From: Dehalococcoidia bacterium
Lineage (GTDB): Bacteria > Chloroflexota > Dehalococcoidia > UBA6926
NCBI GenBank assembly: GCA_965206275.1
Contig: OZ242203.1
Coordinates: 761,894 to 825,893 of the forward strand
DNA: 64,000 nucleotides
Direction: 5' to 3'
Shown here: positions 3,109 to 63,745 of the stretch, in pieces
Position numbering within the stretch: position 1 is the stretch's first letter
How the letters are laid out: every line of letters starts with the position of its first letter
Made by a program: the position numbers and the translations under genes
The notes under the pieces: model-generated
What the model saw: the letters and a program-made list of their open reading frames with translations, nothing else
The model's database searches: none
What the model was told of the DNA's origin: nothing

Positions 3109-6100
3109 TTGGCTATGGCCAATATAGAAGCACGTCGGTTGCGGCGTCCTGACGCGCCGCCACTGTACGATCCTATCCACGAAAAGGATGCTTGCGGAAC
3201 CGGCTTTATCGCACAGGTTTCCGGCGTCCCGTCGCATGACATCGTCAGGCAGGCAATCACTGCCGTCGTCAATCTCACGCACCGCGGCGCAGTGTCCGCG
3301 GACGCCCGAACGGGCGATGGCGCGGGCATCCTGACACAACTCCCCCGCAAGCTGCTCCTCCGCGAGTTGGCTGCACAGGGCATCTCAGACGTCTCCGGTG
3401 ATGACCTCGCCGTCGGCATGATCTTCTTCACACCCGCCGATCCTGAGGGCGGAAAACACGCCGTAAAGACCATCGAGAAAGAAACCGAGCGGCGTGGCCT
3501 TCGCTTCCTCGCATGGCGCGACGTGCCGAACGACCCGTCCGTGCTCGGCGAGCAGGCGCTGGCGACGCTCCCTGACATCCGCCAAGCGATCATCGCTTGT
3601 CCGCCTGACATGGACAAGGATGCCTTTGAGCGCGCGCTGTACTTGGTACGACGAGCCGTCGAGGCAGAGATGACTGGACGGGGTGACGACGAGTTCTACA
3701 TCCCGTCCTTTTCGTCACGGACGGTCGTGTACAAGGGTCTGCTCGTCGCGACGCAGTTGTCGGGCTTCTACAAGGACCTGGATGATCCGGATTTTGAGTC
3801 GGCGCTCGCCGTCTTCCACCAGCGCTATTCCACCAACACGTTCCCCAACTGGCAGCTCTCTCAGCCGTTCCGCTTCCTGGCCCACAACGGCGAGATCAAC
3901 ACGCTGCAGGGCAACCGCAACTGGTTGCGGGCACGTGAGGCCAACCTAAGCTCCGAGGTGTGGTCGAAGGACGATCTGCGCACGATAACCCCGGTGACAA
4001 ACCAGTCGGTCTCCGACTCCGCCTCGCTGGATCACGCATTTGAACTCCTGCAGGTGTCCGGTCGAAGCATCCTGCACTCAATGATGATGCTCACGCCGGA
4101 GGCGTGGGAAAACATGCCGCACATGGACGAGGACTTGCGCGGATTCTATCGATACCACGCGTCCCTCACCGAGCCGTGGGACGGCCCCGCCGCGCTGGCG
4201 TGGTCGGACGGCGAAACTGTCGGCGCGTCGCTGGACCGGAACGGCCTCCGTCCTGCCCGCTACATCATCACGGATGACGGCCTCGTGGTCATGGGATCAG
4301 AGGTCGGCGTCCTGCCGCATATCTCTACTGACCGCATCATCGAAAAGGGGCGGCTTGGCCCCGGGCACATGATCGCCGTTGACACGCGCAGCGGGCGCGT
4401 CATGAAGAACGGCGAGATCAAGAGCGAAATTGCCGTGCAGCAGCCCTATCGTGAGTGGGCGGAGCAGCAGTACATCCAGTTGAACGTGCCCATCCACGCC
4501 ATGCAGAACGGCGCGGGGCATCACATTGAACCTGAGATGGAGTTGATGCGTCGCCAAAAGGCCTTCGGCATGACGGCGGAAGAGCTGCTCATCATCATCA
4601 AGCCCATGGTGCAGGAGGGCAAGGACGCCACGTATTCGATGGGCGACGACACGCCGTTGGCAGTCTTCTCCCGGATGCAGCCCTCTCTGTTCAACTACTT
4701 CAAGCAGCGCTTCGCGCAGGTGACCAACCCGGCAATCGACCCCATCCGCGAGGCCATCGTCATGTCCGCCGAGACCTATCTCGGGCCCCGCGACAGCATG
4801 CTGCGTGAGCGAGAAGAGGCGGCGCACCTGCTCGCCATCCCCGGCCCCGTCATTCGCGACCACGAACTGGACGCCATACGCAGTGTCGACTCACCACATC
4901 TGTCGTCCGTCACACTGCCGGTAGTCTTCGCCGCTGAGGACGGACCGGACGCGCTGGAGCAGGCACTCGACGATCTCTGTGAGCAAGCAGTCTCCGCAGT
5001 GGACGAGGGTCACTCAATCATCATCCTGTCAGATAGGGCCGTCGACGAGCGACACGCCCCCATCCCGATGATGCTGGCCCTCGGGGCAGTCCATCACGAC
5101 CTCATCCGACGCGGCAAGCGCATGAAGGCGAGCCTTGTGTGCGACACCGGCGAGGCGCGAGAAGTACACCACTTCGCGGCGCTCATCGGCTACGGCGCGA
5201 GCGCCGTCAATCCCTACCTCATCTGGGAGAGCCTGCGTGAACTCTTCGAGCGCGGGGAGTTCAGTGAGGAAGAAGACGAAGACTATACGATCGCCAAGTA
5301 CCAGGCGTCGGCCAACAAGGGCGTGCTGAAGATCATGTCCAAGATCGGCATATCTACTGTCACGTCCTACCACGGCGCGCAGATTTTCGAGGCTATCGGC
5401 CTGAGCGACGACATCGTTCAGAAGTGCTTTGCGGGTACGCCGTCGCAGGTGGGCGGCTTGGGATTCCGCGAGCTCGCAACGGACGTCCTCGCACGGCATG
5501 ATCGCGCCTTCAACTCTGAACTCACGCCGAAGTCTAAACTCGAAGACCACGGATTCATCCGCTATCGCAAGAGCGGAGAGTTCCACGCCAACAACCCCGT
5601 CGTTGTGCGCACGCTCCACAAGGCCGTTCGCTCTGGCGACTACGAGGACTATGTTCCCTACCGCGACGCCCTGAACAATCGGCCGGTCTCCTCGCTGCGG
5701 GACACGCTCACCTTCAACAAGACGCGTGAGCCGATTTCCATCGACGAGGTGGAGCCGATAGAAGAAATCTGGAAGCACTTCACCACGGGCGCAATGTCGC
5801 TCGGCGCGTTGAGCGCGCGCGCCCACGAGACACTGGCGATGGCTATGAATCACATCGGCGGTGCGGCTGACACGGGCGAAGGCGGCGAGGATCCACGGCG
5901 GTTCCGTGGCCTGACGCGCGGCTACAACGCCAATTCCAAGATCAAGCAGATTGCCTCAGGCCGATTCGGCGTCACGCCGGAATATCTCGCCATGGCCGAA
6001 GAAATCGAAATCAAGATGGCGCAGGGCTCCAAGCCCGGCGAGGGCGGACAGTTGCCCGGCCACAAGGTCATTGAATACATCGCATACCTCCGGCACACGC

Positions 6101-18525: not shown

Positions 18526-18643
18526 CCCGGTGACTCTGGCGAAGCGGACCCACCCGTTCCCATCCCGAACACGGAAGTGAAACGTTTCAGCGCCGACGAT
18601 ACTGGAGGGGCAGCCCTCTGTGGAAAATAGGTCGTTGCCGGGG
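18526..18643 (+). rRNA. rrf: 5S ribosomal RNA, unlinked to any 23S gene.
   Basis: It matches the 5S consensus (CCCGTTCCCATCCCGAACACGGAAGTGAAAC...GCGCCGA-GATACTGG). Helix I closes between 18526-18534 and 18634-18642. A TACAAT element sits about 10 nt upstream and a T-rich tract follows the gene. Confidence 0.85.
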
Positions 18644-53364: not shown

Positions 53365-54900
53365 ATGAAGAGGCTCGCCGTAACTATCGTCCCGCTTGCA
53401 ACCGCGCTGGCGACTTTCGCATGGCTTATCCCCGGAGTCGCGTTTGCTCACGGCTTTGGCGAGAAATATGACCTACCCCTGCCCTTGTCTCTCTATGTGA
53501 CCGGCGCGGGTCTTGCCGTCGCCCTCTCATTCGTAATCGTCGCCGTCTTCGTGCGCCGAACACCAAGCGCAACCGACTACCCCCGCTTCAACCTCCTACG
53601 CCTCTGGCCTGTCCGCGTGTTGGCAACCACGCCTGTCATTCAGACGCTGCGCGTCCTCAGCGTCCTCCTGCTCCTGCTCGTTCTCCTGACCGGCGCGTTG
53701 GGCGTCAACCGTTCGACTACAAACATCGCACCCGTTCTGGTGTGGGTGTACTGGTGGGTCGGCATCGCGTTCGCGTCCGCGCTCATCGGAAACGTCTGGG
53801 GCTTGGTAAACCCAGTCCGCACTCTGTACGAATGGATGGACGCACTGGCGCAGCGCGTCATCCCCGGCGGCCTCAGCTTTGGGCAGGACGACTCCGCATA
53901 CCCGCCGCATTGGGCTGCATGGCCCGCCGTCATCGTCTTTGCACTCTTCGCATGGTTTGAGATCGCTTATGAGGGCTCAGCGGAGCCGCTCTCACTCGCC
54001 ATCGCCATCATCGGCTACTGCATGATCACGTGGTGGGGCATGGCAATCTTCGGAGCCGACTCGTGGATGCGCAACGCGGACGTTTTCTCTCTCATCTTTG
54101 GCATCCTTGCCCGATTCGCCCCAACAGAACTCCGCGTCGTCTCCGAATCGGGCGAGACCGTCTCCATTGACGATGTCGAGGCTTTCCGTGCCGCCCCGCC
54201 TGAACGACGAGAGTTCGGCCTCCGCCCTCCCGGCGCAGGACTGCTCAATGCGGCTGCAACGTCAACCTCCTACATGATTCTCGTCGTCGTCCTTCTCTCC
54301 ACCGTCACGTTCGACGGCCTACAGGACACCCCGCCCTGGGCGCGACTCGTCCACTCGGCGTTCGTCAACTCACCGGGCTGGACGTCCACCGCCGTCACGC
54401 TGGTGAACACGGCAGGCCTTGTCGCGTTCGCCGGGATATTCGTCGCCGCCTACCTCCTCTTCTGCGCCGTCATGGCCCGCTCAGGCGAGGAGCCTGAAAC
54501 GCGGAATACGCTGGCCGCTGCCCGCGTCTTTGCCCTCTCCCTTGTCCCCATCGCTTTCGCATACCATCTCGCCCACTTCGTCTCCTACCTGCTCATTCAG
54601 GGACAGGTCGTAATCCCCCATGCCTCCGACCCGTTCGGATTCGGATGGAATCTCTTCGGCACATCCGACTACGAGGTCAACATCGGCATCGTCAACGCGC
54701 AGTTCGTCTGGATACTGGCCATCGCCGCCATCGTCATCGGCCATGTCATTGCCGTCTTCCTCGCCCACGCCACGGCGCTGCGACACTTTGGCGCGCACGA
54801 CGTCGCTTTGAGAAGCCAGCGCGCTATGCTCATCCTGATGGTCGGCTACACGATGGTCAGCCTCTGGATCCTCGCCCAGCCAATCACCGAATATGTTTGA
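53365..54900 (+). CDS. Polytopic membrane protein (511 aa, at least 10 transmembrane segments) whose predicted mature N-terminus begins with His.
   Basis: The signal peptide ...PGVAFA|HGFGEKYDLPLPL predicts a mature N-terminal His. The protein has many hydrophobic helices. I recognise no family. Confidence 0.6.
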   Translation: MKRLAVTIVPLATALATFAWLIPGVAFAHGFGEKYDLPLPLSLYVTGAGLAVALSFVIVAVFVRRTPSATDYPRFNLLRLWPVRVLATTPVIQTLRVLSVLLLLLVLLTGALGVNRSTTNIAPVLVWVYWWVGIAFASALIGNVWGLVNPVRTLYEWMDALAQRVIPGGLSFGQDDSAYPPHWAAWPAVIVFALFAWFEIAYEGSAEPLSLAIAIIGYCMITWWGMAIFGADSWMRNADVFSLIFGILARFAPTELRVVSESGETVSIDDVEAFRAAPPERREFGLRPPGAGLLNAAATSTSYMILVVVLLSTVTFDGLQDTPPWARLVHSAFVNSPGWTSTAVTLVNTAGLVAFAGIFVAAYLLFCAVMARSGEEPETRNTLAAARVFALSLVPIAFAYHLAHFVSYLLIQGQVVIPHASDPFGFGWNLFGTSDYEVNIGIVNAQFVWILAIAAIVIGHVIAVFLAHATALRHFGAHDVALRSQRAMLILMVGYTMVSLWILAQPITEYV

Positions 54901-54986: not shown

Positions 54987-55021
54987 CCTTGAACCGCGTA
55001 TCGAGGGATAGAGGGGAGACA

Positions 55022-57400
55022 ATGACGACGACAGACAATGGAGCGTCCCCGTCCGTCTTGGGCGGAATCCGCGTGCTTGATCTCTCAGGCCTCGCCGGGC
55101 AGTACGCCGGACGCCTGCTTGCAGACCTGGGCGCGGAGGTCATCAAGATCGAGCCGCCGGGCGGCGACCCCGTCCGCTCCATGCCGCCATTCGCAGGTGA
55201 CGAACCTGGCCTCGACCGCAGCCTCCGCTGGCTCGCCTACAACTCCAACAAGTCCAGCGTCGTCATCGACATTGAAACGGACAGCGGCTGCCAACAACTG
55301 CTCGACATGGCACGGTCCGCCGATGTCCTGCTGGACAGTTTCGAGCCCGGCTATCTTGCAGGCATCGGACTGTCTGATGAAGCCCTCAGAGAGGCCAACC
55401 CCCGCCTGATCACCGTCTCCGTCACCCCGTTCGGCGAGTCCGGCCCCTACAGCGACTACCTCGCTTCAGACCTCCATGCCATTGCCATGAGCGGCCTGAC
55501 CACGATACAGGGCGACGACGAGCAGCCCCCCGCTACCGCCCCTCTCGACCAGGCATATATCCTGGCCAACACCCACGCCGCGCACGGCGTCTTCTACGCC
55601 CTCATGGCCCGCCGCAAGACAGGCCGCGGCCAGCACGTTGAGGTGTCCATGCAGGAGGTGCTGGCCAACATCTTCTACCAGATCATCCGATACTCGGCCA
55701 CGTCGGAAATCGGTGAACGCATCGGCGCAACCGGCAATCTCGCCCCATACAACATCTATCGGTGCAAGGACGGTTGGGTAAGCCTCGCCGTCCTCCTCGC
55801 CCCGCAGGCAAAGGTCTTCTTCGACTGGATGGGCGAACCCGCACTCCAAAACGACTTTTTCTATCCCCTCATCAACCGGCAGGGCGAGAACATGCTGTTC
55901 ATCGATACTTTCGCCCGCCCCTTCATCGAGCAGTTCACGGTGGCCGAGTTCGTGGAAGAGGCGCAGAGTCGACGCCTCCCCGCCGCTCCCGTTAACCGCC
56001 CCGGCGACTTTGCCGACAACCCGCAGTTCGCGGAGCGCGGCTACTTCCAGACCGTCGAACATCCGGAGATCGGCGAGTATCCCCTCCCCGGTGCGCCCTT
56101 CCGTATGTCGGAAACCCCCATCCCACAGCCCAACCGTGCCCCTCTCCTCGATGAACACGCCGGTAAGATCGAGGAACGGCAACCTGCTCCCGCCGGCGCG
56201 TCCGACAACGGCGCAACGCCCGTCCTCCCCTTGGAGGGCGTCCGGGTCCTCGACTTCACACGCATCTGGGCAGGGCCGTACTGCACGCGCCAGCTTGCCG
56301 ACTACGGCGCGGAGGTCATCAAGATCGAGTCGTCCCTTTTCGATAGGGACAATCGCATGGGCACCATGCCCTTCGTCGCCGACCTCAACCGTAACAAGCA
56401 CGGCATCACTCTTGATCTGCACCACGATGAGGCGAAGGACGTTGCCAAGCGCATCGCCGCCGTATCTGACCTCGTCATAGACAACTTCGCGCTCGGCGTC
56501 ATCGACCGCTTCGGCCTCGGCTACGAGGACATGCGCAAGGTCAACCCGGACATCATCCAGATCAGCATGCCCGGCTGGGGCAGCGTCGGCCCCCTCAGGG
56601 ATCACGTTGCCTTCGGATTCAGCCTCGTCTCCGTCTCCGGCCTCAGCTACACGTGGGGACACCCCGAGTCGGAGCCGAACGCCCGCTGTAAGTTCGATTA
56701 CCCGGACTTTCTCATCGCCAGCCTCACCGCGCTCGCCGCCCTTGCCGCCATCTACCACAAGGCGGAGACCGGACGCGGCCAGTACATCGAGATGGCGCAG
56801 GTCGAGGCCATTGGCAACACGATGGCCATGCCCTTCATGGACTACAAGCTCAACGGTCGCCCCGGCGAGCCTGTCGGCAACCGCCACCCCCTCCACGCCC
56901 CGCACGGCGTCTACCCCGCCAAGGGCGACGATGAATGGTGCGCCATTGCCTGCAGGACGGATCAGGAATGGGAAGCGCTCGTTGAGGCCATAGGCAGCCC
57001 CGCGTGGGCGCTGATCCCGGACTACGCGACGCAGGAAGGCCGAAAGGCCAACGAGGACGCCCTGAACACAGACCTGTCCGAGTGGACGCGAACGCTAACC
57101 CCGCGCCAGGTCATGCACCTGCTCCAGCGCCACGGCGTCCCCGCCACCGCCGTCCACAATGGCGAGGGCCTCTTCTGGGATCCCCACCTGCGTGATCGCG
57201 GCTACATCCACACCATTGACCACCCGGATTGGGGAGTCCTTGAGCAGCCCGGAGTCACCGTGCGACTCTCGGAAACCCCCGGCGGCTCGCGGATGCCCTC
57301 CGCCGCCCTCGGCCAGCACAATGACTACGTCCTCCGCGACATCCTCAACCTCTCCGACGAAGAGGTCAAAGCACTGCAGGACGTGGGAGCATTGACGTAG
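55022..57400 (+). CDS. CoA-transferase family III (CaiB/BaiF) protein consisting of two tandem transferase units in one 793-aa chain.
   Basis: Two repeats of ...GIRVLDLS...GAEVIKIE...D... occur at residues about 10-400 and about 405-790 (LEGVRVLDFTRIWAGPYCTRQLADYGAEVIKIES). GAGGGGAGA lies upstream of the ATG at 55022. Confidence 0.8.
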   Translation: MTTTDNGASPSVLGGIRVLDLSGLAGQYAGRLLADLGAEVIKIEPPGGDPVRSMPPFAGDEPGLDRSLRWLAYNSNKSSVVIDIETDSGCQQLLDMARSADVLLDSFEPGYLAGIGLSDEALREANPRLITVSVTPFGESGPYSDYLASDLHAIAMSGLTTIQGDDEQPPATAPLDQAYILANTHAAHGVFYALMARRKTGRGQHVEVSMQEVLANIFYQIIRYSATSEIGERIGATGNLAPYNIYRCKDGWVSLAVLLAPQAKVFFDWMGEPALQNDFFYPLINRQGENMLFIDTFARPFIEQFTVAEFVEEAQSRRLPAAPVNRPGDFADNPQFAERGYFQTVEHPEIGEYPLPGAPFRMSETPIPQPNRAPLLDEHAGKIEERQPAPAGASDNGATPVLPLEGVRVLDFTRIWAGPYCTRQLADYGAEVIKIESSLFDRDNRMGTMPFVADLNRNKHGITLDLHHDEAKDVAKRIAAVSDLVIDNFALGVIDRFGLGYEDMRKVNPDIIQISMPGWGSVGPLRDHVAFGFSLVSVSGLSYTWGHPESEPNARCKFDYPDFLIASLTALAALAAIYHKAETGRGQYIEMAQVEAIGNTMAMPFMDYKLNGRPGEPVGNRHPLHAPHGVYPAKGDDEWCAIACRTDQEWEALVEAIGSPAWALIPDYATQEGRKANEDALNTDLSEWTRTLTPRQVMHLLQRHGVPATAVHNGEGLFWDPHLRDRGYIHTIDHPDWGVLEQPGVTVRLSETPGGSRMPSAALGQHNDYVLRDILNLSDEEVKALQDVGALT

Positions 57401-57450: not shown

Positions 57451-59865
57451 ATGACATCTGGGAATGCGAACGGCGCCGGCGCCCTCGATGGCGTGCGCGT
57501 GCTTGATCTCGGCGGGCTGCCGTCCATGTACGCCTCCAAGCTTCTCGCCGATTTCGGCGCGGACGTCATCCTCATTGAGGGCCCGAACGGCGACCCAAGC
57601 CGCCACATGCCGCCCTACGCCGCCGGAGAGCCTGGCCCGGAGCGCAGTCTCGTCTTTCACTCCTTCCACGCCAACAAGCGCAGCGCCGTCGCCGACATCA
57701 CGACGGACGAGGGCCGCGCCGCTATTCGCCGCCTCGCCCGATCCGTCGATGTTGTCCTGGAAACCAACACCCCCGGTTACATGGCCGAAATCGGCCTCGA
57801 TTTCGAGAGCCTGCGCGCCGACAACCCCGGCTTGATTCTGTGTTCCGTCACTCCCTACGGCCAGACCGGCCCATATGCCTCCTACAAGGGCACTGACCTC
57901 CACGCCGAGGCCATGGGCGGCCTCATGCTCTTGCAGGGCGACCCCGACCGCCAGCCGGTCATGTCACCCTCTTTCCTCGGCTATTCCGTCGGCGGCACCC
58001 ATGCGGCCATCGGCATCATGAACGCCCTTTTCGCGCGGGAGCATTCCGGCCGCGGCCAGCGTGTGGACGTCTCAATGACGGAGGCGATAGCGAACATCCT
58101 GTTCATCGTGGCGCAATTCGGCTACAACAGCACCGTTGCTGACCGCCCCGGCACCGGCGGCGGCGGCGGGACCGGTGTCTTTGAGTGCTCCGACGGCTGG
58201 ATTGGCTTCTCTCCTATTCAACCCAACCAGTTCATGACGTTCGCGAAATGGACGGGCAATGAAATCATCTCCGACGAGATGTTTCGTGAACTCACCGTCC
58301 GACAGGAGAACAAGGACTTCATCAACGAGATAGCAGTGGAGTTCTTCCTTACCAAGACCGTCGCGGAGGCCGTGGAAGAGGCGCAGGCACAACGTATCCC
58401 CGCCGCGCCCGTCAGCTCTCCGGCCGACCTCGCCCAGAACCCTCACCTGCTCTTCCGCGACTACTTCCAGGACGTCACGCATCCGGTTCTCGGCGACTAC
58501 AAGCTCCCCGGTCCTGCGGGCCGACTTAGCGAAACACCGTGGTCCTTGCGCCGCCCAGCGCCAACGCTCGGACAGCACACGGACGAGGTGCTTGCAGAGG
58601 CCGACAACGCCGCGCCGTCGACACCGGCAGCTCCAGTCATGGCCAACCCCGGCAACGGACGCATGCCGATGGAGGGCGTCCGCATCACGGACCTGACCCG
58701 CATCTGGGTCGGCCCATACGGCACTCGCCAGCTGGCGGACTTTGGCGCGGACGTGATCAAGATCGAGTCCTCGCTATTCGACCCCGCGTCGCGCATCACC
58801 GGCATCCTGCCCATGCACCCGGAGCTCAACCGCAACAAGATGAGCATCACCGTCGACCTCCACTTCGAGGAGGGGCAGGACATCGTCCGCAAGCTGGCGG
58901 CGACAAGCGATGCCGTCGTTGAGAACTACGCCGCAGGCGCGCTCTCCCGCTGGGGTCTGGACTACGAGGGCATCCGCGCCGTCAAGCCCGACATCGTCTA
59001 CATGAGCATGCCCGGCTGGGGCAGCACAGGCCCGTTCGCGTCCCATGTGCTCTTTGGCTTGCAGGCGCAGACGGCCTCCGGCGTCACGTATCTCTGGGGG
59101 CATCCGGAATCGCCCCCGTCCATGCGCTGTGGCGTCTACTACGCCGACTTCTTCGTCGGTGGCCTCTCTGGCTACATGCTGCAGACCGCTCTCTATCACA
59201 AGCTCAAGACCGGCCAGGGTCAGCGCATCGAGGTTTCTCAGGTGGAGGCGCAGGCGAATGCGCTCGGCGTGCCCCTGCTGGACTACGTGATCAACGGTTT
59301 CAACCAGGAGCCGACGGGCAACCGCCGCGAATACGCCGCCCCGCACGACGCCTATCCGTGTCTCGGAGATGATCGCTGGTGCGTCATTGCCTGCCACACG
59401 GAGGAGGAATGGCAGGGCCTCGTGCGCGGCATGACCCCGTTCAACGAGGAAGACCCACCTGAGTGGACGCAGGACCCGCGTTTCGCAACGCTTGAGGCGC
59501 GCCTCGCAAACCGTGAGGCCCTCGATGAGTTCGTTTCAGAGTGGACGAGGAGCCTGACCCCCCGGCAGGTCATGGCGACGCTGCAGAAGCACGGCGTTCC
59601 CGCCGCCGCCGCGCAAACCACGGAGGACGTGTACTATGACCCCGCCATGAACGCGCGCGGCTACGTCGTCAACGTGCCGCACGTGGAACCACAGTGGGGC
59701 AACATCGGACACGCCTCATACGGCGCGAAGCTCGAGGACACCCCCGGCGCAATCCGCATGGGCGCCCCCGCCCTCGGCCAGCACAACGACTACGTCATGC
59801 GCGAACTGCTCGGCCTCTCCGAAGCTGACATCCGCGAACTCATCGAAGCAGGAGTCCTCGTCTAA
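57451..59865 (+). CDS. Second tandem-unit CoA-transferase family III protein (804 aa), paralogous to 55022-57400.
   Basis: It has the same double-unit architecture (GVRVLDLGGLPS...GADVILIEGP, then MEGVRITDLTRIWVGPYGTRQLADFGADVIKIES). GGAGGAA lies upstream of the ATG. Confidence 0.8.
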   Translation: MTSGNANGAGALDGVRVLDLGGLPSMYASKLLADFGADVILIEGPNGDPSRHMPPYAAGEPGPERSLVFHSFHANKRSAVADITTDEGRAAIRRLARSVDVVLETNTPGYMAEIGLDFESLRADNPGLILCSVTPYGQTGPYASYKGTDLHAEAMGGLMLLQGDPDRQPVMSPSFLGYSVGGTHAAIGIMNALFAREHSGRGQRVDVSMTEAIANILFIVAQFGYNSTVADRPGTGGGGGTGVFECSDGWIGFSPIQPNQFMTFAKWTGNEIISDEMFRELTVRQENKDFINEIAVEFFLTKTVAEAVEEAQAQRIPAAPVSSPADLAQNPHLLFRDYFQDVTHPVLGDYKLPGPAGRLSETPWSLRRPAPTLGQHTDEVLAEADNAAPSTPAAPVMANPGNGRMPMEGVRITDLTRIWVGPYGTRQLADFGADVIKIESSLFDPASRITGILPMHPELNRNKMSITVDLHFEEGQDIVRKLAATSDAVVENYAAGALSRWGLDYEGIRAVKPDIVYMSMPGWGSTGPFASHVLFGLQAQTASGVTYLWGHPESPPSMRCGVYYADFFVGGLSGYMLQTALYHKLKTGQGQRIEVSQVEAQANALGVPLLDYVINGFNQEPTGNRREYAAPHDAYPCLGDDRWCVIACHTEEEWQGLVRGMTPFNEEDPPEWTQDPRFATLEARLANREALDEFVSEWTRSLTPRQVMATLQKHGVPAAAAQTTEDVYYDPAMNARGYVVNVPHVEPQWGNIGHASYGAKLEDTPGAIRMGAPALGQHNDYVMRELLGLSEADIRELIEAGVLV

Positions 59866-59871
59866 ACACCC

Positions 59872-61734
59872 CTACATGAACTCCTCTAGGCGCTGGATAT
59901 TCCGCGGGTTATCAACCTCGTTGCCCTTCTGTATCCCCGCGTAGTACGCAAACAACTGCACCGGCAGCGCCGTCACCAGCGGCAGCAGCGCCTGCGGCGT
60001 GTCTGCCGGAATGAAGATGGGGTGGTCCACGATCGGCGCGAGTTCCTCGTCGCCCTCCGTGAGAATAGCCGCCACCACGCCCCCGTTGTCCTTCACCAGC
60101 CTGACCGCAAGCGCCATGCGCCCGTACTCGGGGCCCTGAGGTGCGATGGCAAATGCAGGTGTCTCGTCTCCGTTGACGAGGGCGATAGGCCCGTGAATAA
60201 TCTCCGACCCCGGATAGACCTGTGCGTGGATGTACCCAAGTTGTATGAGTTTCCACGCCCCCTCCGCCGCTATCGGGTACAGGCGTCCGTGTGCCAGGAA
60301 AAGCGCGTCACGACGCGTTGAATAGCGCGTGGCCAGCGCCGACGGCAGGGACGGGTCCTCAAGGATGCGATTCGCGTATCCCGATAGCTTGCTGAGTTCG
60401 TTCAACCGGCCGGGCACGGACTCCGCGCTGTCATTTCCTCGAACCTCGGCGAGGTGCATCGCTATCAGGTAGAACGTGAGCACTGACGATGTGAACGTTT
60501 TTGTGGACGCCATCCCCACCTCGCGTCCACAGCGCAGCGGCACCACCGCGTCTGCCAACATCGCCCCCGTCGATTCCTGGTCATTCGTCACCATAATCGT
60601 CGGGCAGCCCAGTTCGCTGGCCCGCGTCATGGCTCCCAGCGTATCCAGCGTTTCTCCGGATGCCGTCACCCCGATGAAAAGCGTGTTGGGGCCAAGCTCA
60701 AAGTCACCAAAGACAATCTCTGAGCCAACGTCGACCTGGCACGGCAAGTCCGTCATTTCTTCGATATACAGCCGGCCGGCGTCCGCAGCGTGGAGAGACG
60801 AGCTTGACCCTGTGAGCACCACCCGCTCAACGCCTACTAGCGCGTCGCGGATTGAGTCGAGTTCCTCCATCCGGAGAGAGACCGTGTCGAAATCCACGCG
60901 GCCGCGTAGCGTATCCGTCCACGCCTCCGGTTGCTCGGTAATCTCCTTGATCATGAACGTCATGTGGCCGCCGCGCGCCGCCGCCATCGGGTCGTCCGAC
61001 GGCGAAATGGAGCGCTTGGTGATGGGAACCCCGGCCATCAGCGTCTTGAAGTCCACGCCCTGCGGCGTCACGATCGCCATCTCTCCGGCGGCAAGGAACG
61101 CGATCCTGTCCGATACGCTTGTCAGCGGCCCCGCCTCGCTCGCCACGAAGGCCTCATTGTGCCCCCATCCCACAACAAGCGGGCTTGCGTAGCCGCTGCG
61201 CGCGGCCACGATGGTCTGCGGCTCCTCCGCCCGCGCCGCAACAACGGCCAGCGTTCCCTGCGTCCGCGCCATAGCCGCCCGGACGGCAACCTCAAGGCTC
61301 GCGTCCGCGCCCGCCATGAGTAATTCCTCTTCAATCAGGTGAGGAATAACCTCCGCGTCAGTGGTCGAGAGAAAGCGATGGCCGCGCCCACGCAGTTCCA
61401 GTTTGAGTTCAACGTGATTCTCCACGATGCCGTTCGTAACGACGGCAAGCAGGCCATGACAATCGAGGTGCGGCTGCGCGTTCTCGGTGGTCACCGCCCC
61501 GTGTGTCCGCCACCGCGTGTGTCCCAGACCCATAGGCCCAAGCGGCGGCTCTTCGGACAGCGCGCCCTCCAGCACGTCGAATCGTCCGACGGTCTTGACG
61601 GAATTGAAATAGCCGTCCGGGTCGCGCACGGCAACACCGGCGCTGTCGTAGCGCTGGTCTCTCACCTCTGAAAGGGCCTGCAAGAGGACCGGCACGGCCT
61701 CTCGAACACCGACGTAGCCAACGATGGCGCCCAT
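59872..61734 (-). CDS. Glutamine--fructose-6-phosphate aminotransferase homolog (GlmS-like, 620 aa) whose N-terminal Cys nucleophile is replaced. The N-terminus reads MGAIVGY instead of MCGIVG.
   Basis: It aligns along its full length with GlmS: the glutaminase domain (GHTRW.THG, HPH, NGIVENH) and two SIS domains. The start is unambiguous, with GAGGGA 6 nt upstream and an in-frame TGA 4 codons upstream, and no Cys codon is present at the N-terminus. Confidence 0.8.
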   Translation of the reverse strand: MGAIVGYVGVREAVPVLLQALSEVRDQRYDSAGVAVRDPDGYFNSVKTVGRFDVLEGALSEEPPLGPMGLGHTRWRTHGAVTTENAQPHLDCHGLLAVVTNGIVENHVELKLELRGRGHRFLSTTDAEVIPHLIEEELLMAGADASLEVAVRAAMARTQGTLAVVAARAEEPQTIVAARSGYASPLVVGWGHNEAFVASEAGPLTSVSDRIAFLAAGEMAIVTPQGVDFKTLMAGVPITKRSISPSDDPMAAARGGHMTFMIKEITEQPEAWTDTLRGRVDFDTVSLRMEELDSIRDALVGVERVVLTGSSSSLHAADAGRLYIEEMTDLPCQVDVGSEIVFGDFELGPNTLFIGVTASGETLDTLGAMTRASELGCPTIMVTNDQESTGAMLADAVVPLRCGREVGMASTKTFTSSVLTFYLIAMHLAEVRGNDSAESVPGRLNELSKLSGYANRILEDPSLPSALATRYSTRRDALFLAHGRLYPIAAEGAWKLIQLGYIHAQVYPGSEIIHGPIALVNGDETPAFAIAPQGPEYGRMALAVRLVKDNGGVVAAILTEGDEELAPIVDHPIFIPADTPQALLPLVTALPVQLFAYYAGIQKGNEVDNPRNIQRLEEFM

Positions 61735-61743
61735 AGACGTCCC

Positions 61744-62436
61744 TCACCGCTCCGCGCGTTCTTCAGCGTGTTGTGTGTCTCGCGCAGTGCTCTCATAGTA
61801 GCCGCGCATGTGCTCAGGCAACAGGCCCGCAATGGCATGCATAATCTCGTTCGTTGCGCGTTCAAACCGGTCGTCAACTTTGGATTCCGCTAGCTCAGAG
61901 AAATCCAACAACTTGCCGATGCGCGCCGTGAAGCGTGGCCTGCGAACAACAAACGTGGGGTTGTGCCCTAGTCCGGCAAGGCCCTCAATGCCAACCGGTA
62001 GCACCGGCGCGCCCGTCGTCAGCGCAAGGAAGCCCGTCCCAGGCCGGGCCTGCCCCACCCGCCCGTCCCGGCTCCGCGTCCCCTCCGGGAACATCCCGAT
62101 TGCGCCACCGCCGCGCAGGTGCTCCCGCGCGATTCTCAGCGCTTCACGATCAAGCCTGTCCCGCGTTATCGGAATCAACCCCCACGTCCGCACCAGCCAC
62201 CGCGTTAGTGCATTCCCCTCAGTCACAAGTTCCCGCTTGGCAAGAAACCGCACTTGCCACGGCATGATCACGCCGATCAGCGCCGGATCCATGTTGTGTG
62301 TGTGATTCACAGCCACAATTACAGGCCCCGTTGACGGCGCATTCTCGCGTCCATGTACCGTCAGTCGCGACCCTAGTCGAAACGCCCCTGCCGCGCTGGA
62401 GTGCAGCGCCTTTGACATCAGTGACTGTTTTTCCAT
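61744..62436 (-). CDS. plsC: 1-acyl-sn-glycerol-3-phosphate acyltransferase family protein.
   Basis: HxxxxD-type motif (VNHTHNMD) and FPEGTRS block. The start is the ATG at 62436 or the GTG at 62439. Confidence 0.8.
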   Translation of the reverse strand: MEKQSLMSKALHSSAAGAFRLGSRLTVHGRENAPSTGPVIVAVNHTHNMDPALIGVIMPWQVRFLAKRELVTEGNALTRWLVRTWGLIPITRDRLDREALRIAREHLRGGGAIGMFPEGTRSRDGRVGQARPGTGFLALTTGAPVLPVGIEGLAGLGHNPTFVVRRPRFTARIGKLLDFSELAESKVDDRFERATNEIMHAIAGLLPEHMRGYYESTARDTQHAEERAER

Positions 62437-62509
62437 CACGCCACTATAGTAGACGCTGTGCGTCTGTCCCTTTCCCTTTGACGGGGAAGGCTAGGTGGGG
62501 GTGAACGAA

Positions 62510-63745
62510 ATGACGTCTGCAAACGATAGCGCCGTGCTGAACGGCATCGACCGTGATGAGGTCGTGCAGCTCATGAAAGACCTGCAGAGCTATCGCAGCT
62601 TCTCCGGCAACGAGACGGAGGTCATGCGATTCCTTGCAGGCTGGTTTGATGAGCGTGGCCTCTCAACCGAACTCATTGACGTATCCGATGAGCCCGGCCG
62701 CCCTGATCTGGTCGTCCGCATCCCCGGCAGCGCTAGCGGCTCGTCGCTCATGCTCAACGGCCACTTGGACATCGACCCTGTTCCGCTCAACTATCCCGGC
62801 GATCCGTGGGACTGCCACGAAGACGGCGACATTCTCACTGGCCACGGCCTCGGCAACATGAAAGCTGGCGTGGCATCAGCCGCCGCCGCAACTGTCGCCG
62901 TCCACCGCTCCGGCGCTCAACTCCGTGGCGACCTGCTCTTCACCGGCGTCGTTGGTGAGTTGCAGGGCGGAGTCGGTGCCTCCGACCTCGTCCAGCGAGG
63001 CATCGGCTGCGACTACACAATCATCTGCGAGCCGTCGTTCCTCGATGTCCGCACCATGCACTCCGGCGCGTGCCAGTTCGTCATCACGGTCACCGGCTCG
63101 TCCGCGTGGATCGGGATGCTCCACCGCGCCGAATACGTCAATGCCGTCCGCGTCATGTCGGATGTCGTCAGCGCACTGGATGATGTCGAGTTCTCAGCGC
63201 AGCCGCACCACGCCACGCCCGGTCTGCCCCGCATGGTCGTCGGCGCGATCAACGGCGGCGTCGGAACTGATTTCCTGAAGTGGCGCGCCTCCTACGTAGC
63301 CGACTACTGCGCCATCATCATTGAAGTGCGCGGCGTGCCGGGACAGGACTGGGAGCAGACGCAGGCCGACATCGACAACGTGCTTGAGGGTGTTCGCGCC
63401 GCCAACCCGGACGCCACCATTGAAATCTCGCCGCCACCCGCCACGTACACGGACGATTGGCGCAGCATGAAAGTCCCCGGGCACGGCATCGATACACCAA
63501 TCGACCACATGCTGCCCCAAACAGTCGCGCGCCGACATACGGAGGTCACCGGAAGCGCGCCGGAGCGCGTCGGCCCTCAGGACCCCGGCTCCTATGCGTG
63601 GACGGACGCGGGATGGTTCGAACGAGGCGGCACAGTTCCCATTGTCTACGGCCCAACCTCCAACACGGAACGCATTACGCGCATCGAGAACGTGCTCACG
63701 GTCGCCCGCGTCCTCGCGCTCTCCGCGCTGGACATCTGCGGGTGA
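62510..63745 (+). CDS. M20-family metallopeptidase (ArgE/DapE/acetylornithine deacetylase-like).
   Basis: M20 fold blocks (...LNGHLDIDPV..., ...GHGLGNMKAG...). A GGTGGGGGTGA tract lies 7 nt upstream of the ATG at 62510; a GTG at 62495 is an alternative start. Confidence 0.8.
   Translation: MTSANDSAVLNGIDRDEVVQLMKDLQSYRSFSGNETEVMRFLAGWFDERGLSTELIDVSDEPGRPDLVVRIPGSASGSSLMLNGHLDIDPVPLNYPGDPWDCHEDGDILTGHGLGNMKAGVASAAAATVAVHRSGAQLRGDLLFTGVVGELQGGVGASDLVQRGIGCDYTIICEPSFLDVRTMHSGACQFVITVTGSSAWIGMLHRAEYVNAVRVMSDVVSALDDVEFSAQPHHATPGLPRMVVGAINGGVGTDFLKWRASYVADYCAIIIEVRGVPGQDWEQTQADIDNVLEGVRAANPDATIEISPPPATYTDDWRSMKVPGHGIDTPIDHMLPQTVARRHTEVTGSAPERVGPQDPGSYAWTDAGWFERGGTVPIVYGPTSNTERITRIENVLTVARVLALSALDICG

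Follow-up and report, generated by a model that had tools for sequence, protein, structure and literature searches.

A gene encoding a 620-aa glucosamine-6-phosphate synthase (GlmS) paralog was identified at positions 59872 to 61734 (minus strand; open reading frame (ORF) list and sequence) of contig OZ242203.1 from a Dehalococcoidia bacterium, positions being those of the analysed stretch of 64,000 nucleotides (64 kb; hereafter, the window). On balance, we favour the interpretation that its product, referred to below together with its orthologs as the variant, is a catalytically inactive GlmS paralog, i.e., a pseudoenzyme, which would bind ligands and would play a regulatory or sensor role in hexosamine and envelope metabolism. 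The operational features of a pseudoenzyme were found together, namely loss of catalytic residues, purifying selection, and a canonical paralog on the same chromosomes. Synthesis of uridine diphosphate N-acetylglucosamine (UDP-GlcNAc) universally starts from GlmS, which is usually essential and serves as a drug target; its catalytic residues are regarded as invariant. Within the searchable literature, no account of a GlmS pseudoenzyme was found.

Catalytic and Ligand-Binding Residues

Residues were compared, in E. coli GlmS numbering, between 28 sequences of the variant clade and 112 canonical relatives, all of which keep the catalytic residues except for a few with truncated N-termini. In GlmS, Cys1 is the sole catalytic residue of the glutaminase site, and the isomerase site features Glu488, His504, and Lys603 (PMC9272926). 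The window protein carries Gly, Gln, His, and Arg at these positions, and each of the 28 clade sequences has exchanged three of these four catalytic residues. Codon 2 (GGC, 61729–61731; this and the following coordinates on the minus strand) specifies Gly at the position of the nucleophile that Met removal exposes, as in 27 of the 28 clade sequences, the remaining one having Ala, and Cys1 is kept in all 105 N-complete Chloroflexi relatives. Codon 498 (CAA, 60241–60243) places Gln where GlmS has Glu488, the general base of the ketose/aldose isomerisation (KLIQ vs. KLKE; Gln in 28/28, Glu in 112/112 canonical sequences), and codon 615 (CGC, 59890–59892) places Arg where it has Lys603, which forms the Schiff base with fructose-6-phosphate (Arg in 28/28, Lys in 112/112). 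The equivalent of His504, the ring-opening residue, is kept at codon 514 (60193–60195), 16 residues after position 498, in every clade sequence. Furthermore, the C-terminal lid, which in GlmS closes the sugar site and lines the ammonia channel, has been rewritten (59875–59898): the invariant LAKSVTVE is replaced by IQRLEEFM (clade pattern I-[QREH]-R-[LI]-E-[ED]-[FLI]-x), and 9 of 15 canonical-conserved positions in the region 591–608 are lost. A preliminary description of the window had reported the loss of the Cys, which proved to be real, but had missed the exchanges at Glu488 and Lys603 and the replacement of the whole lid.

In total, 34 columns with a conservation of at least 95% in the canonical set never carry the canonical residue in the clade. 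The lost columns cluster in the glutaminase centre and its coupling region (C1, G2, Y25, A75, and H86), in the catalytic helix (L484W, K487, E488, E495, G500, and K503), and in the tail. Arg26 is replaced by Gln in 26 of the 28 sequences, His86 by Gln, and Q348 by Ala in 22 of 28. Fifty-four positions are invariant in the clade with residues occurring in less than 5% of the canonical sequences, many of them being located in the catalytic helix and the tail (L484W, G500S, G301S, and V605E). Against a background of 115 out of 166 canonical-conserved columns being kept, all 12 conserved ligand-contact residues were retained (R73, W74, T76, H77, N98, G99, D123, S349, T352, E481, K485, and H504; 0.69^12, approximately 0.01).

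The effects of comparable exchanges have been described for related enzymes. PurF in which Ala or Ser replaces Cys1 lacks glutamine-dependent activity, while use of ammonia is still possible (PMC3261824). In homologous SIS enzymes, the Glu was reported to be indispensable for catalysis but not for binding, and even a Glu-to-Asp exchange was inactivating (PMC10285752; PMC10201695). The catalytic Glu and His of the deglycases FrlB and FraB are exactly 16 residues apart (PMC10285752). An unusually acidic charge was also considered as a special feature of the variants (approximately −30, compared to a mean of approximately −15 for the canonical set), but was rejected: charges of −19 to −33 were obtained for canonical copies of the same genomes, and neighbouring genes are comparably acidic, so that the charge represents a trait of the proteome.

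Gene Start and Family Assignment

The N-terminus of the protein reads MGAIVGYVG, and the earliest Cys is found at residue 92. An in-frame TGA (61746–61744), being the stop codon of the upstream acyltransferase gene, lies four codons 5' of the ATG; therefore, no earlier start is possible for the paralog. This stop codon overlaps the ribosome-binding site GAGGGA (61745–61740, minus strand; the overlapping elements together spanning 61740–61746), which is located 5 nt before the ATG. The preliminary description thus gave the start correctly, including the upstream TGA and the lack of an alternative start providing a Cys, and its ribosome-binding motif is present, although the spacing is 5 nt instead of the 6 nt stated. 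ORF analysis, hidden Markov model (HMM) searches, and structure alignment agree with its account of an MGAIVGY start with Gly in place of Cys in a protein matching GlmS from end to end. Its statements that the oxyanion-hole and substrate-binding motifs are kept (R73, W74, N98, G99, and D123 are all present), that both SIS domains are present (Pfam finds two SIS stretches), and that GltB from the same window keeps its Cys (ACGTGF in a 1535-aa ORF near position 3193) likewise hold.

The protein comprises an N-terminal nucleophile (Ntn) glutaminase-like domain (residues ~1–245), followed by two SIS subdomains and the C-terminal tail (residues ~250–620); Pfam assigned GATase_6/7 and the two SIS stretches, and residues 3–615 could be aligned to E. 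coli GlmS structures. Its scores exceed the cut-offs of both curated models for glmS, TIGR01135 (482.8 bits, cut-off 418.05) and NF001484 (502.8 bits, cut-off 381), and in the HMM search of the window protein no curated cut-off was reached for any family besides GlmS. An identity as NagB-II (model NF046059, 68 bits vs. a cut-off of 430) or GlmD (NF041128, 46 bits vs. 580) was rejected on account of these low scores, the presence of the glutaminase-like domain, and the Glu-to-Gln exchange. FrlB/FraB was rejected as well, since position 498 is Gln, although the 16-residue spacing of the Glu and His positions (498 and 514) is kept. Class II (Ntn) amidotransferases are defined by an N-terminal Cys as the sole nucleophile (PMC7605207, PMC9272926), which the window protein lacks. 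Since three defining catalytic features of the GlmS family are missing, the sequence data argue that the variant, though a GlmS by HMM, should not be named glutamine--fructose-6-phosphate transaminase.

Conservation and Selection

To judge from a scan of genome collections, the same gene is present in 21 species-level metagenome-assembled genomes (MAGs) of Dehalococcoidia/Chloroflexota with 72–97% identity, several of them originating from sponge or coral bins (SB0661, APA, and Plut). All 21 copies start with M/L-G-A-I and carry the variant tail. The replacements are fixed in 28 distinct sequences, including those of the 21 MAGs, and more than 140 cluster members share this state. Among 22 DNA sequences, Gly2 is encoded by GGC (20) or GGA (2), Gln498 by CAG (18) or CAA (4), and His514 by CAC (15) or CAT (7), and four different Arg codons specify Arg615 across the orthologs. 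The synonymous variation at the replaced sites and the state shared by 21 MAGs exclude a sequencing error. An error at a single codon, which had been offered as an alternative in the preliminary description, is thereby refuted, and its question of whether the Gly is conserved among relatives is answered positively.

The pairwise ratio of nonsynonymous to synonymous substitution rates (dN/dS) of the variant ranged between 0.035 and 0.127 overall, with 0.05–0.14 for the glutaminase-like domain and 0.06–0.12 for the SIS domains, indicating that the variant is not a pseudogene. For one and the same genome pair, the variant was 78.2% identical and the canonical GlmS 76.1%. Constraint on the glutaminase-like domain equals that on the SIS domains, and the protein as a whole is held by selection no weaker than that acting on the working enzyme.

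Canonical glmS in the Same Genomes

A canonical, bacA-linked glmS was found in addition to the variant on at least eight chromosomes or contigs. The canonical proteins P0105 and P0117 (MCGIMGY...KLKE...NLAKSVTVE) are encoded on chromosomes of 1,721,455 and 1,868,702 bp shared with the variants L017 and L016; their genes lie hundreds of kb from the variant, next to a glmU-like gene and bacA. Furthermore, the variant and canonical proteins of one MAG are both deposited at NCBI under nearby accession numbers. The earlier proposal of a glutaminase-dead GlmS paralog, to be checked by searching for a second, MCGI-type glmS, is therefore supported by the MCGIMGY-type copies in the genomes of close relatives. 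The glmS ribozyme, looked for as a marker of the housekeeping copy, was detected neither in the window nor in five canonical loci (Rfam gathering thresholds), so that it did not help to tell the copies apart.

Some further features of the canonical loci were observed. At three of them, a PF01933 (CofD/YvcK-family) gene resides beside bacA-glmS (L024, 3952–4944; L025, 2878–3912; L027, 3080–4063). In Bacillus, the YvcK-family protein GlmR regulates GlmS. By analogy, this neighbour may represent a second protein-level regulator of GlmS in these Dehalococcoidia. Directly downstream, the canonical glmS is followed by a tRNA gene in the two complete chromosomes inspected (L022, 7855–7926, and L023, 7886–7957, both on the minus strand), and a tRNA pair upstream of it is also conserved.

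Predicted Structure

The AlphaFold2 (AF2) model of the variant was of high confidence (pLDDT, the per-residue confidence score, 91.2; predicted template modelling (TM) score, pTM, 0.90), and each domain resembles solved GlmS domains (1XFF, 7DNR, and 2V4M) with TM scores of 0.94–0.95. The best full-length matches were chains A/C/E of 3OOJ (TM 0.78–0.80), while a score of only 0.56 resulted with the active forms (2J6H, 1JXA) and with human GFAT-1. The reverse was obtained for the canonical P0105, modelled as a control from the same sequence set, with TM scores of 0.91–0.92 to 2J6H/1JXA, 0.89–0.92 to GFAT-1, and 0.55–0.57 to 3OOJ chains A/C/E; its C-tail was disordered, as expected for unliganded GlmS. 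The structure 3OOJ represents the C1A mutant of E. coli GlmS in an inactive hexamer form (PMC10087520). The domains of the variant are thus predicted by the model to be held in a non-channel arrangement, which fits the loss of Tyr25, Arg26, and the lid.

Functional Interpretation

Judging from its residue losses, the variant would no longer produce glucosamine-6-phosphate (GlcN6P). Its SIS pocket would still bind a phosphosugar resembling fructose-6-phosphate (Fru6P) or GlcN6P, and the former glutaminase pocket an amino acid resembling Gln or Glu, so that in hexosamine and envelope metabolism the protein would function as a regulatory subunit or a sensor. Among the options named in the preliminary description, a regulatory form fits best, whereas an isomerase-only or ammonia-dependent form is not supported in view of Glu488 to Gln, Lys603 to Arg, and the rewritten lid. 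A more specific version, which we regard as tentative and rather doubtful, would be a heterodimer of the variant with canonical GlmS, analogous to the prozymes discussed below. The GlmS-type active site takes its His from the partner chain (PMC10285752) and Glu and Lys from one and the same chain; since the variant keeps His504, it could complete the active site of a canonical partner. Such a heterodimer would possess one working site and one dead site sensing ligands, the dead pockets of the variant acting as allosteric sensors.

The same sequence features could also be read differently. The remodelled site, with an invariant Trp at 484, Gln488, Arg603, an acidic tail, and an Arg at 75, may have been neofunctionalised and may catalyse a new reaction on a phosphosugar or a sugar-amino-acid conjugate by means of His504, Glu481, Lys485, or a free N-terminal amine. 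We consider this a real possibility, though not the expected outcome. It would account for the 54 clade-invariant unusual positions, many of which fall in the catalytic helix and the tail, for the strong selection on both domains, and for the burst of changes followed by a freeze described below, which is the classic pattern of a function shift. The SIS fold is known to host varied chemistries, among them those of deaminases (NagB-II, GlmD) and deglycases (FrlB, FraB), and Gly or Ala at position 2 would still permit removal of the initiator Met, leaving the N-terminal amine in the pocket. However, the Glu replaced by Gln in the variant is required by all of the characterised SIS-fold isomerases, deaminases, and deglycases cited here (PMC10285752; PMC10201695), and exchanges such as Cys to Gly, Glu to Gln, and Lys to Arg are of the kind that removes chemistry while keeping shape and binding. 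Moreover, no neighbouring gene points to a new pathway, the plsC linkage being probably ancestral, and no curated cut-off of a family other than GlmS was reached.

Residual activity of the GlmS type, i.e., an isomerase-only enzyme, an ammonia-dependent GlcN6P synthase, or a catabolic GlcN6P deaminase without glutamine hydrolysis, appears improbable to us. The score above the glmS equivalog cut-off, the retained phosphate-binding loop, Lys485, Glu481, and His504, and the ability of PurF Cys1 mutants to use ammonia (PMC3261824) are in its favour, but Glu488 and Lys603 are replaced in 28/28 sequences, the lid is exchanged, the coupling residues Tyr25 and Arg26 are missing, homologous deaminases and deglycases cannot do without the equivalent Glu (PMC10285752; PMC10201695), and the scores for NagB-II and GlmD fall far below their cut-offs. 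On sequence grounds, this explanation is unlikely for the clade but possible for its nearest relative P0010 (see below), to which it may well apply, as Glu488, Lys603, and a canonical tail are kept there. An artefact or a decaying gene, whether codon 2 was misread or misassembled or the copy has drifted as a pseudogene since its duplication, is refuted as an explanation. It is true that one G-to-T change turns GGC into TGC, that errors could underlie single Gly1 cases found elsewhere (P0176 and possibly P0010), and that fragmented copies occur in some long-read assemblies (e.g., the 109-aa P0344); against this stand the same state in 21 independent species-level MAGs and more than 140 cluster members, the synonymous turnover at the replaced sites, the 620-aa frame being intact everywhere at dN/dS values of 0.04–0.13, and the confident structure prediction.

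Several points weigh against the favoured interpretation of a ligand-binding pseudoenzyme. The ligands of the variant and any partner are inferred, and some other reaction might be supported by Gln and Arg together with His504, Glu481, and Lys485, which are kept. Reportedly, early mutagenesis indicated that K603R alone may not fully abolish the activity of E. coli GlmS. The 64-kb window contains no canonical glmS, the copy in the genome of the window being deduced from its relatives, and the location of both genes on one chromosome comes from a look-up for two genomes, six further pairs having been recognised by equal-sized contigs. For the structural contrast, each protein was modelled in a single AlphaFold run that used neither templates nor ligands, the trees used below are exclusively neighbour-joining (NJ) trees, and the linkage to plsC says little about function.

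Rarity and Evolutionary Origin

In an exhaustive search of 1.84 billion representatives at 50% identity, the whole variant clade constituted one cluster (1197 bits), and the next match outside it reached 471 bits with 41% identity. Among the other 149 representatives, Cys1 was kept in 145, Glu488 in 147, and Lys603 in 147, and the loss of all three was found in none. Correspondingly, in 80 metagenome loci, Cys1 was present in 77 of 77 N-complete genes, and all complete tails were canonical. Measured against these counts, the absence of Cys1 from the window protein greatly exceeds what chance would give. The nearest protein outside the clade, P0010 (49% identity), has Gly1 but keeps Glu488, Lys603, and a tail of the canonical type; its locus features the divergent M20 gene, the acyltransferase gene, and the GlmS-like gene, and ends in PPDK. 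In the NJ trees, P0010 was placed as sister to the variants (95/100 and 89/100 bootstraps), and both together as sister to the bacA-linked canonical group, with a long stem leading to the variants.

Distant Chloroflexi-like contigs, e.g., L031, feature the gene order cmk-plsC-ispH-glmS-PPDK with a canonical glmS, and the plsC-linked slot looks like the ancestral position of glmS. As plsC also lies near the canonical glmS of these distant contigs, the linkage probably represents inherited synteny. A functional coupling of the variant to the PlsC-family acyltransferase was therefore dropped, the adjacency being better explained by inheritance. Synteny and the NJ tree are consistent with a scenario in which a duplication within the Dehalococcoidia left a working glmS at the bacA-linked locus, while the copy in the old plsC-linked slot would have lost its Cys1 nucleophile first, a state still seen in P0010. 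In the sponge- and coral-associated clade, a burst would then have replaced Glu488, Lys603, the residues Tyr25 and Arg26 that couple the domains, and the C-terminal lid, after which the variant would have been frozen by strong purifying selection. The sequences suggest a stepwise loss beginning with Cys1, an order deduced from one intermediate, P0010, considered at the level of its protein sequence.

A wider family of Cys1-less GlmS proteins was considered and rejected, as P0176 (MMGGIIGY) is a singleton among canonical GlmS proteins of Clostridia, and P0187 and P0259 are isolated representatives. P0259 keeps Cys1 and carries E488Q, H504D, and K603G; P0187 has Pro1, N98G, K485L, and E488V. These two are unrelated cluster representatives, and degenerate GlmS homologs may have arisen several times.

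Genomic Context of the Variant

The gene directly upstream (61744–62439, minus strand) encodes a PlsC-family acyltransferase of 231 aa with the HX4D motif HTHNMD (PF01553, 97.4 bits), its score being below the TIGR00530 cut-off. It adjoins the variant in 21 of 21 loci and likewise at the P0010 locus. The overlap of its stop codon with the ribosome-binding site of the variant is kept at most of the 21 orthologous loci, which suggests co-transcription of the two genes and possibly coupled translation. A further conserved neighbour, also present in 20 of the 21 loci and at the P0010 locus, is the divergent gene for an M20 ArgE/DapE-family deacylase (62495–63745, plus strand). The acyltransferase and deacylase genes are separated by 55 nt (62440–62494), so that their promoters must overlap, and the M20-plsC arrangement is also retained at the distant P0010 locus. 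Four proteins of 230–240 aa listed in the 90% cluster of the variant P0003 (P0337, P0338, P0343, and P0347) are in fact the upstream PlsC-like acyltransferase, starting with MDRQSFTS and ending like a PlsC C-terminus, which suggests a clustering artefact or plsC-variant read-through fusions in some assemblies.

Downstream of the variant, two tandem genes of 803–804 aa (54989–57400 and 57451–59865, plus strand) each encode two fused family III CoA-transferase (CaiB/BaiF) domains. They are approximately 47% identical to each other, and the pair is conserved in most related loci; the second gene is convergent with the variant, the stop codons being 6 nt apart. In some relatives, an extra gene of ~1–1.7 kb, absent from the window, lies between the variant and the CoA-transferase gene. 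In L002 (11965–12945, plus strand), this is an ORF of 326 aa featuring a hydrophobic segment at the N-terminus and a region resembling a coiled coil; similar gaps occur in L004, L006, L008, and L015. A 511-aa ORF (53365–54900, plus strand) gave no Pfam match at E ≤ 0.001, yet it is found with 68–96% identity in 16 related loci. Finally, a 5S rRNA gene was detected at 18526–18643 (plus strand, 89 bits), and at gathering thresholds no 23S or 16S rRNA match was obtained anywhere in the 64-kb window; the gene for 5S rRNA appears to be unlinked from the other rRNA genes.

Implications

The variant is named 'glutamine--fructose-6-phosphate transaminase (isomerizing)' by NCBI (MCY4576012.1). Because it passes the equivalog threshold and bears the name of the enzyme, metabolic reconstructions of these sponge and coral symbionts will count a glmS that is almost certainly not working, and where a fragmentary MAG lacks the bacA-linked copy, the pathway would be scored as complete on the strength of the wrong gene. 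The variant is confined to a narrow clade of uncultured symbionts; it offers a natural experiment on what the GlmS scaffold does beyond catalysis, e.g., ligand sensing or regulation of a paralog, and would be a rare, well-supported bacterial addition to the catalogue of pseudoenzymes. If the variant is indeed a regulatory subunit, it would represent the first pseudo-GlmS and a new control of the first step of cell-wall precursor synthesis, in which a sensor derived from the enzyme would set the hexosamine flux of the symbionts at the protein level.

Comparison with Known Systems

The closest known system is GlmS/GFAT itself (EC 2.6.1.16; TIGR01135; 1JXA, 2J6H, and 4AMV), with which the variant shares length, two-domain architecture, and per-domain fold at an identity of ~33% to E. 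coli GlmS and 40–46% to Chloroflexi GlmS. Shared residues include those of the glutamine site (R73, W74, T76, H77, N98, G99, and D123) and of the sugar-phosphate site (S303, S349, T352, S401, E481, and K485) as well as His504. The variant differs in the exchanges of Cys1 to Gly, Glu488 to Gln, and Lys603 to Arg, in the replacement of Tyr25, Arg26, and His86, in the lid (LAKSVTVE to IQRLEEFM), in the loss of 38 out of 166 canonical-conserved positions, and in having a canonical glmS alongside. GlmD, NagB-II, FrlB, and FraB are homologous to its isomerase half and have in common with it the phosphate-binding Ser/Thr loop, an inter-subunit active site, and a His located 16 residues after the catalytic position; however, they lack a glutaminase domain and all keep the catalytic Glu, whereas the variant has the N-terminal domain and Gln.

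Disabled paralogs have also been described elsewhere. In trypanosomatids, 'prozymes' are catalytically disabled paralogs kept beside an active copy. Viral pseudo-GATs work together with an amidotransferase of the cell (PMC7605207), and in the PurF paralog Mlab_0150 the Cys1 position is occupied by Ser (PMC3261824). All of them resemble the variant in being disabled paralogs, although these precedents serve as analogies only: the viral pseudo-GATs are homologs of class I amidotransferases, unlike the variant, and a partnership of the variant with canonical GlmS is hypothetical. The best full-length structural match to the model, 3OOJ, shares with the variant the absence of the Cys1 thiol, a likeness between a prediction and a crystal structure. 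That protein is an engineered point mutant of an otherwise complete enzyme, in equilibrium with the active dimer, whereas the losses in the variant are natural, multiple, and fixed.

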